A stretch of DNA of 64,000 nt, from NCBI GenBank assembly GCA_000165425.1, contig CT868263.1, positions 62,001-126,000 of the forward strand, in the 5' to 3' direction. The position numbers were made by a program, and so were the translations under genes. The notes under the pieces were generated by a model. It had not been told where the DNA came from and made no database searches. It was given only the letters and a program-made list of their open reading frames with translations. This DNA comes from Paramecium tetraurelia. Its lineage: Eukaryota. How positions within the stretch are numbered: position 1 is the first letter of the stretch; each line of letters starts with the position of its first letter. Positions 9,638 to 26,400 of this stretch are shown piece after piece.

Positions 9638-11136
9638 TCAACATTCTGTTTTGACTATTTTAGATGAAATTCCATACCAATCAGGTATTAATTGAATCAT
9701 TTCTTATTACGTCATTCTACACATCTCTTCTAAAGAGCATTATCACAATAAGTACCATTAGAGAAGTTGAAAAGTTCTGGAATGCTAATCTTCATCTAAT
9801 TTTATAGGCTTTTTAACTAACCAATGTCTCTCAGTTCATCAAAATAAGGATGAGCTAAAGACTAAAATGGTGTAAGCCTAGTCTTTGGACAGAAAGTGAG
9901 TAATTTTGAAACTAAATCGATGGCCTTGGTATCTTTTGTTTTTAGGACCTGAATAAAACCAACTTTATACTTTATTCCATTTTCTTTGTTTGATTTTAGC
10001 AAACTAATTTGATAATACATCATAATCCCTATTCATACTTAGTATTTATTCTTTTGTGGGAGTTCCAAGTACCTTAACAATCTCAACCATTTAATCAACA
10101 GCAGAGTCTCCCAAAAAAAGTGGTTCTCCATTAATTAATTCTGCTATAACACAACCTACTGACCAAACATCAACCTGAGTGTCATAATCTGTTGCTCCGA
10201 AAATCAATTCAGGAGCTCTATAACATCGAGAGCATATATAAGCTATATTAGGTTCTCCTTTAATTAATTTTTTTGCACTTCCAAAATCGCATAACTATAA
10301 TTTATTGGACTCTGGGTTAACTAAAACATTATGTGGTTTGATATCTCGATGACATATACCCAATAATGAAATATATCTAAGAATATAAATTGATGTACGC
10401 AATCGATCTTAACAATTAGTAACTAAATAACTTGACTAGAACATCAGGCATCTTTTTAAAATCCTTTATAAACGATTTGTTGAAGGAGTAAAGAGTATCA
10501 GGAAAGTACTCCATTACAACATGAAGGTAGCTTTCATCTTTGTTTTCAGCAGGAGTGTAGAATGCATGTTTCATTTTGAGAACATTGACATGATCTAATT
10601 CTTACAATATCTGCAACTCCCTATTTTTATATCTTCGATCCTGTAAGACCTTTTTTATTGCCACAAATTCCCCTGTCTCATTTACTTTAGCCTTTTATTT
10701 ATTATTTATTTACTTTGTGTACAACACCAAAGGATCCGCTTCCAACAACTTTCAGATTTGTGTATGTGAAATTGGTATAATCATGTCTCTCAGTGGATGT
10801 TGGCATCAACACTGATTTAGCACTGTTCTTTTCAATCGAGAGTGGTTTGCGTATCTACTATTTGATAGTCTATTGTTGTATTTATTTTAGTTGATTCTCA
10901 AATTTTGCAACTTAAAAGGATGTAATAGGTTCATCTTTATTTTTCCTGAAGGGTTATTTCACAATCTGATTCATCTTCAAATGAGCTTTTAGATTTGAGA
11001 TGTCTTGCAAGGTTTTCATCTCTTGATCCATCTCCTCCATCTCTGTTACGACTCTTCGATTCATATCTTCCGACTTTTATTGATGAACTGACCCTACTTA
11101 TTTCTTCATTTGCTGATTTAACATTTTCTGAAACAT
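9638..11136 (-). CDS. GSK3: Glycogen synthase kinase 3 / shaggy-like kinase
   Basis: [95 protein letters not shown]. Confidence 0.95.
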
Positions 11137-14844: not shown

Positions 14845-14893
14845 AACATTTTTATTATAAATATATAAGTAAATTTTTAACTTCCTTTAATTC

Positions 14894-15045
14894 ACTTACC
14901 TGGCGAGCACTGCTGATGATCATGCAGATTAGCAGTGTGGGGTTAAGCTGGCCATCGCACAACCGGCGTCAGTGAGGCTCCAAAACTTTCCGTTTGGAAA
15001 GGCTTTATCGCTCAATTTCTGCTAGTGAGGGGAAACCCTCGCACC
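14894..15045 (+). ncRNA. U1: U1 spliceosomal snRNA
   Basis: GC-rich island starting ACTTACCTGG. Stem I CACTGCTGAT/ATTAGCAGTG with 10-nt loop GATCATGCAG; stem II loop contains ATCGCAC; stem III CTTTCC-GTTT-GGAAAG; helix H GGCGA/TCGCT; Sm site AATTTCTG at 15014-15021; stem IV GTGAGGG-GAAA-CCCTCGC. Confidence 0.96.
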
Positions 15046-15243: not shown

Positions 15244-18200
15244 ATGGACCATTAAAGTATGATTAATGAAATTCAGCAATGCTTTTAATCTTCAGAAGCT
15301 TATGCAAAAGTAAAAAAATACAAAGACACATTCCGTGAATAACAAAGGTATTTTGTATTTTTATTTGAGTCAAATATCGCCAATTATTTGTGAGGCAATA
15401 TGTGCAACGATGACTGAAGGCACTCCAATGAGCAAATTACTAGCCTTGAGAGTATAACATTATCCTCTAATTCTAGCTTTGTAAAGAGATGATGGATTTA
15501 AAATCAGATACATTTAGCAAACAAGTCAATGATAAAATTCTTTCGAAAATGAAATAAATTGCAATATTTAAAAAACATGATCAAAGCGATATCAGAGGTA
15601 AATATTTATTCTCTGACAATCCATGTATATATTTATTAATAAGCAAGCCAAGGAAATAGCATCAATTGGAAATAGCTTAATGAAATTATGTCTAGATTGC
15701 ATTAAAGTTTGGGCATTTTGGTATCCTTAGAGCAATTTCAAAGTTGTCTATGATGATTTAATTACATAAGGAGTTGCATTTCCAGTAAAATACACTTACT
15801 TCAAAGAATACAATGACAATCCATCATCTTTGAATTAATCATTTATTCTATCTTCTCACTCATCTAAAGAATAGCCATTAAAATAATCAATACCTAATTA
15901 AAAAACCTATTAAGATGGACAATAATTGTTATAACAAATTAACGTTTAAATTGAAAATCTAGTTAAAATAGTATAAGATTAAGAATCGAATGAGACTATC
16001 AATAACCTAAATCAAATACTCAAAAATAATTTAGAACAATACAATGGATAAATAGAATAGGTTTTAATCCAGATTATTGATTCTGGTGAAGAGAATTTAA
16101 TTAATGATTTAATTTCTAAATAGGAAATGGTTCGTGAAATCAAACAAGATTACGATGATTATCTGATAAAAAAACTTGATTGGAATAAACTTAATTAAAA
16201 ATTCAGAAGATTCACTTAATCACCTATAACTCCTGAACCCGCTTAAGCAATCATACCTACATAATAAAAATAGCAATAGAATCAATAATAAATCTAATCT
16301 ATTAAATAACCTGTAACCACAAAAGCAGATCAAACTCTATCTGTCATTCGAGAAGAAACTGTTTAGGATGCCGATCAAATAGATAAATCAAATATTCTAT
16401 AGGAGGACAATAAAGTAATAATAATTCAGAATATTAGATATCAATGAAATATTAGTCTCTAGTATTAAATTAGACTGAAAATATTAAACCAGGTGCTTAA
16501 ACCCTTCAATCAGAATTACATAAAAAAGATAAATTACAATAAGATAATAAAAAATAGATCCATAAATCTTTATCTGTAGAAGTCAATGATGATATTAATT
16601 TAAATGAATTTTAAGCTAAAATAAATAAATAAACTGACTATGCTAGTACTAAATAAACGAAATAAACATCATAGCCCCTTACTAAAAGTATTGAATAATA
16701 GTCTCCAAAAGCAATAGTTAATTAAGTATTAAGTAACGTATAAGCAAACCAATAAAATTTAAATTCAACCCTACTCTATAGCACAATTAATAATCAGTTG
16801 TAAACCAATCAAAAAGAGCAATAATAAAATTAAGAAGAAAAAGAATTGAATAATTAAAAAAATAATTTTAATAATAAGGAATAATAAAAAGATCAAATAT
16901 AGTAAAATGAGAAGGAAATAATTGAATAATAATAAAAGTAGTAGTAATAGTAGTTAGAATAATAATAGTAGTAATAATAATAATAGTAATAATAACAATA
17001 ATAATAGTAATAGTAACAGTAATAATAACAACAATAATAACAGTAATAATAACAACAATAATAACAATAATAATAATAATAGTAATAATAACAACAATAA
17101 TAATTATAATAACAACAATAATAATAATAATAATAACAACAACAACAACAACCATAATAGTAATAATAACAACTATTGCAATAATAGTAATAGTAATAAT
17201 ATTTTAATTCGAATGCAAAAAAAAATAATTTTGATGAATAAGTTAGTCAGTTGAAATAAGGATTAAAAATAGAAGGATTTGATTAAATTTATAGCTTTTC
17301 TTAAAGATAATCAAACCTGAATGAAAAAAAAAATATGAATTTAAAGTAAATTGATACTTAAGTCAAATTAGAAGGTTAGATTAATTAAATTTAGGACACT
17401 TATATTAAGTAAAAGCAAATGTAAAATTTCAAATAGGACTAAGCAAATAACAGTTCAAGGATTTCTTAGCCTTCATTAAGTTTAAGTTAGGTATCGTAAA
17501 GAAAACTAGAACACTCTTAATAATAGCATCGAAGCTCATCATAAAAACGAGAAAATTATAGTGTGAATGACAAAATAGAGTTGGAACTTTTAAAGGAGGA
17601 AAATCAAAAATTGAAATAATAAGTGAATTAGATTATTGAAAAATATGAAATCAAATAACAATAATATTCCTAAGAATTATAAGACAAAATTAACGAGATT
17701 TCTAGCTTAAAATAGGTAGTCTATGCTAAGACTGATAAAATAGATAGTAATAATTAGTTGATGAAATAATTATAAGATTTCTAAAAACTTTAATTGGATT
17801 ACTAAACTCTTGACTACAAACACAACCAATTATAAAAACAATATGACAATCTGAATGAATAACATGAACAAATTTAGAAAGAAATGTAATTAAAATCAAA
17901 ATAAATTGCATTATAAAATAAAGAAATTTATGAATTAAAACAAATTAAATAATAAGAGTTGGAAATTAAGAAGAGAAGTGAATCTGTAGGTTAATACTCA
18001 AAAACTGCTTAGCAATTTCATCCATAGAATTCGATTCTTAGATAAAGTATCTGTGACGAGCCTATTTTGACAGAAAGCCAGAAAAGGATTATTTTTCCAT
18101 TCACAAATCCATTTGAATACTATAGGGACCGTTTGAAGAATAATTAGAAAGGTCAGGTCTCTTCAGCTTATTCTGAATGGAAAAACTTAAATTTAGACAA

Positions 18201-18918
18201 TTAAAATATCGAAAATTTAAAATAATCAATTTTATCTAATTAATCAATACTTTTTGCATGCAAATAATTAGAAATTGGATGTAAACTAGATAAATTGAAT
18301 GAAAGAAAAATGATATTGCATCTTTTTTTTTTGAATTCCAATAAGCTTTCTGGTTATAAAATGGATTTAAATTTTTAATTTGTTAATGAAATATCAACTG
18401 GAATTCTAAAGAGATAATCAATATAATTATATTAGGATTCTTCTGAAGATTTAGTAATTGAATTCAATATTAATTAATTGCCTTTTTCTATTTCTTCTGT
18501 AAACATAAAGCTTTAAACAACAAAGACAATCAATTATATATGTTATTTGCCAATTTCGTTGTTTAGTTGCTTTCAATTTTTTAATTTATCTTTAAAAGAA
18601 TATCAATCATATTGGCAAATAGCAAAAAACTGTGTGATCAGAAGCCAAGAATTCGAATACAATTTCAATTACGTAAGCAATGTGTTCAGAAAGAACATTG
18701 TAGTGATAGAATTAAATAGCCATAAAAAAAAGGAGTTTTTTGCTGGGATTGATGAAATAAAATATGGATCCATCATATAGTGTGAAAACTCAAATTATTT
18801 GGTAAGATACATATTATAGCCAAATAATAAAATGCTAATTTAGATATGCCACTTGAATGGAAGATAGAACATATCAGATTCTATCTTAAACATTTTAGTT
18901 TTTCTACTTTCTAGTTGA
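15244..18918 (+). CDS. VHS + GAT-like + polyQ hinge + alpha-adaptin-appendage-like protein, ~1190 aa
   Basis: Four introns (22, 25, 23, 23 nt) give a consistent frame to TGA 18916. VHS-like KLLALRLCKEMM...CLDCIKVWAFWYP..FKVVYDDLITQGVAFP; ear-like LKQSILSNQSILFACKQLEIGCK and LPISLFSCFQFFNLSLKEYQSYWQ. Confidence 0.8.
16927..17199 (+). repeat. Coding polyglutamine tract (TAA/TAG/CAA/CAG), ~90 codons
   Basis: In frame with the 15244-18918 gene. Nearly all codons are Gln under code 6. Confidence 0.9.
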
Positions 18919-23422: not shown

Positions 23423-26400
23423 ATGAAATAAAACATTCAAAAACCCAAGTTTAGTCAGGTCATAATGAATTAATATTTTAAAGAGAAAGCAGAGCTTGAT
23501 AATTCTTTTAAGTAAATTTAAAAAAGCATTCTTCAAAAATTTGAGGAAAAATTAAATGCCAAAAACATTTTTTTATTGTACTTTTAAACTTTAACTAATC
23601 TAAATGAATATCGATATATGGGATAAACATTACATGTAGAAGATGAAATAAGGGAGTATTTATAAAGTCTGCCTCTTCATACCTTTTTCCCTTAAAGGAT
23701 TTGGGATTTTAGTTTTACAAGTAAAATACGTTATTAATTTAGAATAATTTCTATAAAAGTTTTAATCTCTCAAAGAAGATGAAGTAATTAGAGTTGTTTT
23801 TTTAATTAGGAGCATACTTTAAGGAAGATTTAATAAATAAAATTATTAATGGATTAATGTGAATCAGATCTAGGTTGGTAGTATCAAATTTCCATTTTAA
23901 CATGACTTTGAATTAGACTTTGCTGTTGAAGGCCGAATTACAATGATGTTTTAAGTGTTTCCCAAAAAATATCCTCTTATGGATAATTCAGATCATCCAA
24001 CTTAATTTGATTTTGTTCATGAATTGATATTTGTCGAGTTGAATGAAGGTACGCATTAGAAAAACCCATAACCATATGAAAAATACCTTAAAGCTCAATA
24101 AAGCAAACCAAACTTTTTTACCGATATGAAATTTATTTAAGAAAATGGAGATAAAAAAAAAATTAAGTACTTAAGGGTTGGGGAAGCCAGTGAAAATCAA
24201 TGCTTATTGTTGGGACCAAGAATATTTAGACCGTTATTATGTTAGGGGAGATAATTTAATTATAATTATAAGTTAAACCTATGGATGACGATAGAAGATG
24301 AAGAAAAATATTATAAGAAATTAAAATAGATAGAAGAAATAAGATAAAATAATTAGATTATAAGAAATTATTGTTTTTTGCCTTCTTCATAATAATTATT
24401 AACAATCATAAAAAACATCCCAAATTTTAGAGTAAAATTAACTGAAGAGTAAAAAAATGTGATTTCATATGGAGGGGATGCTTTAGTAATTGGTAGAAGT
24501 GGAACAGGTAAGACAACATGTGCACTTTTAAAATTATTCTCTACAGACATTTTGTACAAATTGAGAATCAAATTAAATTAGATAAAATCATCATCTACAG
24601 ATATTATATTATCTTAATAAGATTAAAATTCTTAATTAAAGACAATCTTTGTAACTGCAAGTCCATTATTGGCCTGTTAAGTCAAAAGATTATATGATTA
24701 ATTAGTCAATAATATCCAAAATGCAATTAATACTAAAAGACAGAGGACAAAATAGGATTAATAAATGAATCCTTAATCCTAAAATATTGATTTAGAATAG
24801 AGTACTTTCTAAATAATTGAAGCACTTTAATAAAATGATGAAGATATTGATGGTAATAATCAATAAGAAACTTAGAACGATAATGAAATAGAAGATGAGG
24901 AGATCAATGAGTTTGAAAAAGAGATGGGAAAATTTAATAAATTTAGTGAAATTCAATAATTCCCAGTTTTCTTAACACTACGTAAATTATTGGCTCTTAT
25001 TGATTCCTCCCTTCTCCATTCTTTTTTTAAGGTCTTTGGGGGATATTAAAATAAATTATCTTAATGGCATAATGAATCTTCTGGTCTTATGACACTGGAT
25101 AAAAACTAAACTGCTTAGCCATTTAATGAAGATCTTCTATATAAACATATTAGTCTAATTGACAATCAAGAATTTATTGAAACCAATTTACAAGAAGTCA
25201 CATTGGAGGTTTTCGAGAGAGTGTTTTGGCCTAAGATAGTAAAAGATTTGAAGTAGGAATATTATGATGTATCAACTTTTGATCCAACTTTGGTTTGGAG
25301 TGAAATTTGCACAAAAATCAAGGGTCATGAAACCTCACATGAATATCCCGATAAATACATGAATTTTGAAAATTATTCTTATTATCATAGAGTATTATCA
25401 GAGGTATAGACAAAATTACTTTATAAAGCATTTGAGACTTATGAGAGATTAAGACAAAGTTATGGATATTATGATTTGTTAGATATAGTAAATCATATTA
25501 ACTATGAATTATCTTAAGGGAATGATGTGATTGAGAGTGTTCATTATTTAATGTTGGATGAACTTCAAGATGTTCCAAGAGCTGTTCTGGTTTTATTGGA
25601 TAGAATGGCAGAATTTGGTTTATTTTGTTGTGGGGACAATGCTTAGAACATAGCCAAAGGAATAGGGTTTAAGTTTTTTGAAGTATAAGATTGCATCCTA
25701 AATTACAGAGGTAATCAAAGGAGAAGATAATCAAATCTAACATTATTTGATTTAAATATTAATTTTAGATCGCACAATTAAATTCTTTAGATTGGCCAAC
25801 TCCGTTATCAGAGTCTTAGAGATTTGTTTCCCATACAAAATTGATAGATTAAAGAAGGAAACATCTGATTTAACTGGACCAAGACCTGTTGTCTTATAAA
25901 CAGACTCACCATAAGACCTGTTGTCTTACATTTAAGAATTTTTCACAAATGACCGCAAAACAGTTGAGTTTGGATGTAATTAAGCTATCATCGTTAAGGA
26001 TCAAGAATCAAAGGAAAAATTACCTTAAGAACTGTAAAATGCCTTGGTTCTTACTATTTATGAAGCAAAAGGATTAGAATTTGATGATGTAATTCTGTAT
26101 AACTTCTTTAATGATTGCACTACTTCTGTAGATGATTGGAAAATCTTGAATGAATTCGAGGTTAATTCAGTCTATATGTCTGAGGAAGGATTTAAAAATT
26201 TCTAAACAGGTATTCTATATTAAATATTTATAGTCCATCAATCTGAAATTGTAACATCTGATTACAATGCTTAGAACAAATTGATCGAAATTAAATAGCT
26301 TAAGTTAAAAGAAAGGGACTAAAAAAAAGCAAAATCCTAGGATGCCTTTTCGGAATATATTTCTTTATGTTAAGACTTGAAATAACTGTATGTGGCTATA

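Follow-up and report, generated by a model that had tools for sequence, protein, structure and literature searches.

A predicted Paramecium tetraurelia protein that joins a probable VHS-type head to an AP-2 alpha-type ear

We analysed a stretch of 64,000 nucleotides from Paramecium tetraurelia (assembly GCA_000165425.1, contig CT868263.1, positions 62,001 to 126,000 of the forward strand), here called the window, in which positions are counted from its first letter. Our subject is a locus at 15244–18918 on the + strand which, under the ciliate code (translation table 6), is predicted to encode one protein of 1193 amino acids (aa) in five exons separated by four introns. The reading we favour, to which we give a probability of roughly 0.6, is that this is a single gene whose product belongs to a previously undescribed family and carries, in order, a VHS-like domain, a GAT-like region, a disordered Q-rich linker, a coiled coil and an alpha-adaptin-type ear, and that the product is adaptor-like in function.

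Gene structure and expression

The predicted coding region begins with the ATG at 15244 and ends with the TGA at 18916–18918, in an AT-rich region (GC 0.15–0.34), and its reading frame is open only when TAA and TAG are read as glutamine, as table 6 provides. Four GT..AG introns of 22, 25, 23 and 23 nt unite the open reading frame (ORF) pieces into a single frame, and the joined coding sequence of 3582 nt corresponds to 1193 aa plus the TGA. In the features listed here, P0004 is the closest named relative, pb186bvf_002781 of Paramecium bursaria, and P0018, P0019 and P0020 are longer relatives described below.

15244–15347, + strand: exon 1, the start of the VHS-like head; it begins at the earliest ATG past an in-frame stop, and P0004 likewise starts with 'MD'
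15348–15369, + strand: intron 1, 22 nt, GT..AG, with three RNA reads
15370–15451, + strand: exon 2 (QISPIICEAICATMTEGTPMSKLLALR), with an in-register alignment to P0004 and to the repeats in P0018, P0019 and P0020
15452–15476, + strand: predicted intron 2, 25 nt, GT..AG; its removal restores the frame, and P0004 has an insertion at the same place
15477–15624, + strand: exon 3, aligned to the central part of the N-terminal domain in the homologues, the ..RG..F..NP block included
15625–15647, + strand: predicted intron 3, 23 nt, GT..AG; its removal restores the frame and colinearity with P0018
15648–16414, + strand: exon 4, containing the last part of the VHS-like domain (to 15784), a GAT-like helical stretch (about 15911–16183) and the first part of the linker, from the ORF and its BLASTP alignment to P0004
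16415–16437, + strand: predicted intron 4, 23 nt, GT..AG, uniting the two long ORFs
16438–18918, + strand: exon 5, with the Q-rich linker, polyQ tract, coiled coil, ear and TGA, in the open frame 16237–18918

Splicing of intron 1 is seen directly in three reads of RNA run X21, in which GTGAATAACAA stands immediately 5' of 15368 once the shared AG is allowed for. We infer introns 2–4 because their removal restores the frame and leaves the exons colinear with the homologues. Exons 2, 3 and 4 align in order and across the splice junctions to the repeated domain of about 175 residues in the longer relatives, and the peptide that spans intron 3, ...FSDNP-S-KEIASIGN..., is colinear with ...FSKNPSNDQSKIGHN... 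of P0018. Intron 4, an interval picked by hand in a non-exhaustive scan, moves frame 2 into frame 1 ahead of the TGA at 16445–16447. Residues 57–65 of P0004 (VFTISKATK) form a nine-residue insertion that lies exactly at the position of window intron 2 and is found in no other homologue; it is probably a 27-nt intron retained in the deposited annotation.

Three raw RNA-seq runs (X21, X22 and X23) cover the gene at a depth of about 1, which is insufficient to reveal introns 2–4, and their coverage is sparse, with reads in 18, 14 and 13 of 30 bins of the gene, respectively. The first mate lies on the minus strand in all three runs, which in most stranded libraries indicates + strand RNA, and the locus fits a nuclear gene with a weakly expressed + strand mRNA. 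Its very short introns, its genetic code and the kinship with P. bursaria suit a Paramecium-type ciliate. A preliminary description of this DNA, made from its letters alone, had treated the locus as one gene. This view has held up, in that the 23-nt intron 4 unites the frames and that head and ear also stand together in P0004, P0018, P0019 and P0020.

The C-terminal ear

Profile comparison and a predicted structure make it well supported that the last ~240 aa are a homologue of the AP-2 alpha-type appendage, with both of its subdomains. The fragment modelled comprised the last 305 residues of the window protein, the ear proper being about 240 aa. The AlphaFold2 model, built from an 11-row alignment, has a mean predicted local distance difference test score (pLDDT) of 77.7, rising to about 88 over fragment residues 58–305, and places a beta-sandwich ahead of an alpha/beta platform, which is the alpha-type arrangement.

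18232–18558, + strand: ear, predicted beta-sandwich subdomain (fragment residues 78–186; model strands E81–E182, pLDDT ~80–91)
18559–18915, + strand: ear, predicted alpha/beta platform subdomain (fragment residues 187–305; model H187–H303, pLDDT ~77–94)

When the model was searched with Foldseek, the best 8 of 30 matches at E<=0.001 were all AP-2 alpha appendages (E 1.6e-11 to 4.8e-9, TMt 0.69–0.73), followed by the beta2 appendage (TMt 0.47) and then by COPI. With VIA, alpha-adaptin ears (chain 692–938) aligned at Z 19.6–20.4 with a root-mean-square deviation (rmsd) of 2.8–3.2 Å over 218–227 residues; the best of these alignments, to alpha-adaptin 696–938, had Z 20.4 and rmsd 2.9 Å over 224 residues and took in both the sandwich and the platform. 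Other appendages scored lower, with COPI at Z 14.4 and 12.4 and beta2 at Z 13.5. GAE domains and gamma-ears reached Z 9–11 and aligned to the sandwich alone (fragment residues 78–192), and the platform aligned to that of AP-4 beta at Z 11.1.

The profile searches point in the same direction as the model. With a profile of nine ear sequences, the window's first among them, nine PDB hits were obtained at E<=1: seven to AP-2 alpha chains (1.3e-14 to 1.7e-13), while the other two (E 0.076 and 0.27) are unrelated. A whole-protein profile, A7, likewise found seven AP-2 alpha hits among 19 (E 5.8e-11 to 4.1e-10), and neither PDB search returned a GGA or gamma ear at E<=1. The sequence identity of the ear to alpha-adaptin is 12–13%. 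In all seven rows of alignment A5 that reach the column, a tryptophan stands opposite that of the 'FFQRW' segment of alpha-adaptin, and the second phenylalanine of the 'FF' is Q in the window. In alpha-adaptin this tryptophan is central to the platform pocket by which DPF/DPW and FxDxF motifs are bound, a pocket to which arginines also belong.

The preliminary description had called the C-terminus an alpha-adaptin-type ear, and on this point the combined AlphaFold2 and Foldseek check and the profile homology agree, the resemblance going far beyond chance; the two stretches of alpha-adaptin that it cited coincide with the columns in which HMMER matches the family profile to the AP-2 alpha ears. 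It had also expected two Pfam families, of which one appeared, in homologues and not in the window itself. Of 14 homologues scanned, 8 (3/8, 2/2 cluster mates and 3/4 long relatives) match Alpha_adaptinC2 above its gathering score, P0001 and P0021 stay below it, and P0004, P0006, P0009 and P0010 have no hit. Alpha_adaptin_C, the platform family, matched none of the 14.

The N-terminal head, the linker and the relatives

The VHS-like domain is taken as the first 157 residues, with VYDDLITQGVAFP ending at residue 157 (15782–15784). Domain tests on the head of the window protein were made on exon pieces, by BLAST, or on the homologue P0004. Three kinds of result favour a VHS identity. First, exons 2, 3 and 4 align to a domain that stands in two or three copies at the N-terminus of the longer relatives. 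Second, when PDB was searched with a profile of that alignment, A6, the best hit was the TOM1 VHS domain, at a marginal E of 0.021, and the alignment is in register, pairing DY with DW and P..KLLAL with P.VQLLAL. Third, among the 30 named ESM-Atlas clusters nearest to residues 1–160 of P0004 in a language-model look-alike search, 26 were VHS, the best of them scoring 0.92 with 179 of 256 features in common; UVSSA_N was also among the clusters. From these comparisons the head is probably a VHS-type domain. The VHS head named in the preliminary description is retained in this qualified form: the peptide it quoted is present and these comparisons agree with it, while a Pfam match was not obtained.

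GAT domains, which follow VHS domains in TOM1 and GGA, are three-helix bundles that bind Arf and ubiquitin. A peptide previously quoted as part of a GAT segment, IIDSGEENLINDL..., is present at residues 254–283 of the predicted protein, and the nearest named Atlas clusters for P0004 residues 161–265 are GAT, with a score of 0.82. According to the tool's own note, shuffled proteins score 0.8 in one third of cases, so this score is a weak lead only. The low-confidence P0004 model has only two long helices over this part, and the PDB search with profile A7 found no GAT chain. That the region after the head is GAT-like is possible on these sequence comparisons.

The linker between these regions and the ear has three features.

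16925–17201, + strand: polyQ tract of about 90 codons, mixed TAA/TAG/CAA/CAG (TRF: period 3, 91.3 copies, 77% matches)
17566–17943, + strand: probable coiled coil, residues 744–869, from a heptad test
18088–18123, + strand: conserved block IIFPFTNPFEYY containing the sole NPF (18106–18114), from alignment with relatives

The first two had been remarked on in the preliminary description. Its polyQ tract of about 90 codons was borne out as an array of 91 imperfect copies of a 3-nt unit. On either side of the repeat, at 16921 and 17211, the Logan DNA contigs of run X1 break off, and the length of the tract is therefore that of the window sequence alone; it may differ between strains. The coiled coil it placed in the linker agrees with a crude heptad test of our own, in which the hydrophobic contrast at positions a and d, scored in 35-residue windows free of P and G, exceeded the 99th percentile of shuffles only at residues 744–869.

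The NPF motif had been noted at 18106–18114 and is present there, within a block that falls in a low-confidence stretch of the AlphaFold2 model. The block is kept in relatives but the motif is not, P0001 having LIYPFDTAVEYY and P0006 MIFPYSTPADYY. Since NPF is replaced in the relatives, a link to EH domains is unlikely. We rejected NPF as an EH ligand because it is a single, unconserved copy, whereas EH ligands have conserved and usually multiple NPF motifs in disordered regions; it is probably not a working motif.

How far this layout extends was seen in the relatives. An exhaustive HMMER search with the ear over 1.84 billion representatives returned 10 proteins at E<=0.001, two of them at E<=1e-10. 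Against P0004, BLASTP of the spliced model gave separate alignments for the head (residues 18–165, E 7e-18) and the ear (E 4e-15), as well as one spanning residues 36–275 (E 2e-9). A further search yielded four ear proteins of 1302–1498 aa. Three of them, P0018, P0019 and P0020 (1368–1498 aa), have two or three tandem N-terminal copies of the VHS-like domain of ~175 residues, followed by a GAT-like region, a coiled coil and the ear, and the spliced model aligns with their VHS-like repeats (E 1e-3 to 4e-8), as it does with the P0019 ear (E 9e-10). Each of the three almost fills its own contig of 4.4–4.7 kb, like a transcript. The ears of the divergent relatives are 18–22% identical to that of the window. 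Head and ear travel together in several distant relatives, the head-to-ear order recurring in P0004, P0018, P0019 and P0020. The layout marks a family and is no chance fusion. Three other relatives, P0006, P0008 and P0013, have the coiled coil and the ear and no detected VHS-like head; they may be truncated, and as headless proteins they suggest modular assembly.

Three other searches added nothing to this set. A word-indexed protein search with the window C-terminus found no longer proteins, the same kind of search with P0004 residues 1–270 found P0004 itself only, and a metagenome locus scan with alignment A4 matched 600 patterns, none of which was confirmed.

Around the locus, the window holds a U1 spliceosomal small nuclear RNA (snRNA) gene at 14892–15041 on the + strand (Rfam RF00003, 73.3 bits, E 3e-16), about 200 nt 5' of the start codon. 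Its end at 15041 leaves little space upstream of exon 1. RNA-seq depth over the U1 gene is about 80–95, with sharp ends at 14907 and 15021, and at 14924 (G>A) and 14979 (T>C) about half of the reads depart from the window sequence, suggesting that variants or paralogues of U1 are expressed. Farther away, ORF pieces split by small introns at 9839–10751 on the − strand carry protein-kinase motifs and look GSK3/CDK-like by eye, and a 791-aa open frame at 23469–25844 on the + strand, with the P-loop GRSGTGKTT, looks helicase-like by eye.

Interpretation and comparison with known adaptors

The layout suggests a GGA-like monomeric adaptor or scaffold that was assembled independently. In this proposal the protein would work as a monomeric sorting adaptor or scaffold in the manner of the GGAs. 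The head would dock on membrane, cargo or ubiquitin, two chains would probably dimerise through the coiled coil, and the ear would be a hub gathering accessory proteins with short motifs, the conserved platform tryptophan being a likely contact for them. The ear would have been recruited from an alpha-adaptin gene, which would make the GGA-like layout independent of the GGAs of opisthokonts.

Such an independent origin fits two observations. First, the ear is of the two-subdomain alpha type and not a single-sandwich GAE. Second, according to the excerpts of PMC3473312 drawn on here, GAE is a late acquisition of opisthokont GGAs and no VHS subfamily was detected in Chromista. In those excerpts of this 2012 survey, GGA, Hrs and STAM are considered opisthokont-specific, and the Chromista, the group that holds the survey's one Tetrahymena entry, showed only the ENTHA subfamily, no VHS subfamily being detected. 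The convergent assembly put forward in the preliminary description fits both the alpha-type ear and these statements; its term 'ciliate' applies to the window and to P. bursaria. More tentatively, the relatives could be read as an unrecognised eukaryotic family of monomeric adaptors that combine a VHS-like domain, in one, two or three copies, with a GAT-like region, a coiled coil and an alpha ear. Such a family would be spread through ciliates and other protists and would represent a second, independent invention of the GGA design.

A number of results weigh against the reading as a whole. For the head, the TOM1 hit at E 0.021 is near the noise, a comparable small profile, A8, having given unrelated hits at 0.07–0.09, and the language-model evidence for VHS and GAT derives from P0004 and not from the window. 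Pfam VHS matched none of the seven A6 members at E<=10, and a Pfam scan of P0004 found no VHS, GAT or adaptin family at E<=1. Neither exon 4 nor P0004 found anything relevant with phmmer against PDB, and the three-row profile A3 had no PDB hit. An AlphaFold2 model of P0004 residues 1–265, from three rows, had a pLDDT of 52.9, below 50 over residues 1–168; at this low confidence it had no Foldseek match at E<=0.001, and in VIA it resembled generic helical hairpins only. Because of its poor quality we take this model as evidence neither for nor against VHS or GAT. For the GAT-like region, the look-alike score is of a height that shuffled proteins often reach, and profile A8, which covers this region, found only unrelated PDB hits at E >=0.07 and no GAT chain. 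For the ear, Pfam on the six raw ORF pieces of the window found no VHS, GAT or adaptin family at E<=1, single-sequence phmmer against PDB had no hit, and both the model and the profile depend on more alpha-like relatives in the alignment. For the linker, a regular-expression scan found no clathrin box (L[ILMFV].[ILMFV][DE]) in the window model or in P0004, a motif scan of the linker found no DLL, DPF/W, FxDxF or WxxF motif, and the NPF position is occupied by 'PFDTAVEYY' in P0001 and by 'PYSTPADYY' in P0006, NPF being missing from P0004 also. Clathrin might still be bound by other means. For the gene model, no junction read across intron 4 is listed in the RNA runs, whose depth is about 1.

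Several of these points would also be expected if the protein were a coiled-coil scaffold with an alpha-ear whose helical head only resembles VHS. Such a protein would work mainly through its ear, for instance by competing with the partners of the AP-2 ear or regulating them, and would be no cargo adaptor. The want of a match at the level of a hidden Markov model (HMM) for VHS or GAT, the low confidence of the N-terminal model, the headless P0006, P0008 and P0013, and the presence of UVSSA_N among the look-alike clusters all suit this alternative. We consider it unlikely, however, in view of profile A6, whose top match in the PDB is a VHS domain in register, of the 26 VHS clusters out of 30 followed by a region that leads to GAT, as in TOM1 and GGA, and of the conservation of the head, which is even duplicated in P0018–P0020.

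Returning to the single gene that we favour, its parts might instead be two adjacent genes, a TOM1-like VHS-GAT protein ending at the TGA 16445–16447 and a coiled-coil-ear protein starting at the ATG 16444. The two long ORFs do overlap as ATGA, intron 4 has no junction read, and headless ear proteins exist. Yet a 23-nt GT..AG interval of typical size unites the frames exactly, the frame-1 translation 5' of 16438 is not coding-like, reads on both sides share strand and similar depth, and P0004, P0018, P0019 and P0020 have head and ear in one protein, so that we regard two genes as improbable. Finally, an ancient eukaryotic VHS-GAT-ear adaptor, ancestral to the opisthokont GGAs and not convergent with them, would suit a layout common to organisms as divergent as those with 18–22% ear identity to the window, but is very improbable given the bipartite alpha-type ear, a profile that hits only AP-2 alpha and no GGA or gamma ear at E<=1, a GAE that aligns to the sandwich alone (Z ~11), and the late opisthokont acquisition of GAE described in the excerpts of PMC3473312.

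The preliminary description knew of no described protein with this layout, and in full-text literature searches, which do not extend to subscription-only papers, we found no report of a VHS protein that bears an alpha-adaptin ear. An excerpt of PMC8394649 and a term search of PMC4501334 (zero occurrences) held nothing on the layout. GGAs, with their VHS, GAT and adaptin ear, are treated as an opisthokont speciality. If the reading proposed here is true, the design of a cargo reader plus an ear hub arose on more than one occasion, appendage domains have passed from one protein to another, the sorting machinery of ciliates has divergent members that escape standard domain searches, and lineages thought to be without VHS adaptors would gain a sorter of ubiquitin or cargo that is connected to the network of AP-2 accessory proteins. 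For work on Paramecium, the predicted protein would be a concrete candidate sorting factor of the parasomal sacs, endosomes or Golgi.

Among known systems, the AP-2 alpha appendage is the one to which the ear is most plainly akin, with a predicted sandwich and platform that appear homologous to those of alpha-adaptin and with the tryptophan of 'FFQRW' conserved. In the window this ear sits on a different protein, one without an adaptin trunk; Pfam Adaptin_N gave no hit in the window pieces or in the homologues scanned. Because the trunk is missing, the protein is not an alpha-adaptin. It recalls the TOM1 proteins in that the head profile hits their VHS domain best in the PDB (E 0.021) and in the suggested order of VHS and then GAT; this similarity is marginal, with no Pfam VHS or GAT match, and TOM1 proteins are without an appendage, whereas the window protein has one. 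The presence of the ear therefore sets it outside the TOM1 group.

From the GGAs, monomeric clathrin adaptors of fungi and animals built as VHS-GAT-hinge-GAE, it differs in several respects. Its appendage is of the two-subdomain AP-2 alpha type (Z 20.4), in contrast to the single-sandwich GAE of the GGAs (Z ~11, sandwich only); its linker is without a clathrin box and is far longer, with a polyQ tract and a coiled coil; and its relatives have two or three head repeats. On account of the ear type and the missing clathrin box, we do not regard it as a member of the GGAs. What it has in common with them is the order of the parts, namely a VHS-type head (here probable), a GAT-like region (here a lead), a long disordered linker and a C-terminal appendage derived from an adaptin.

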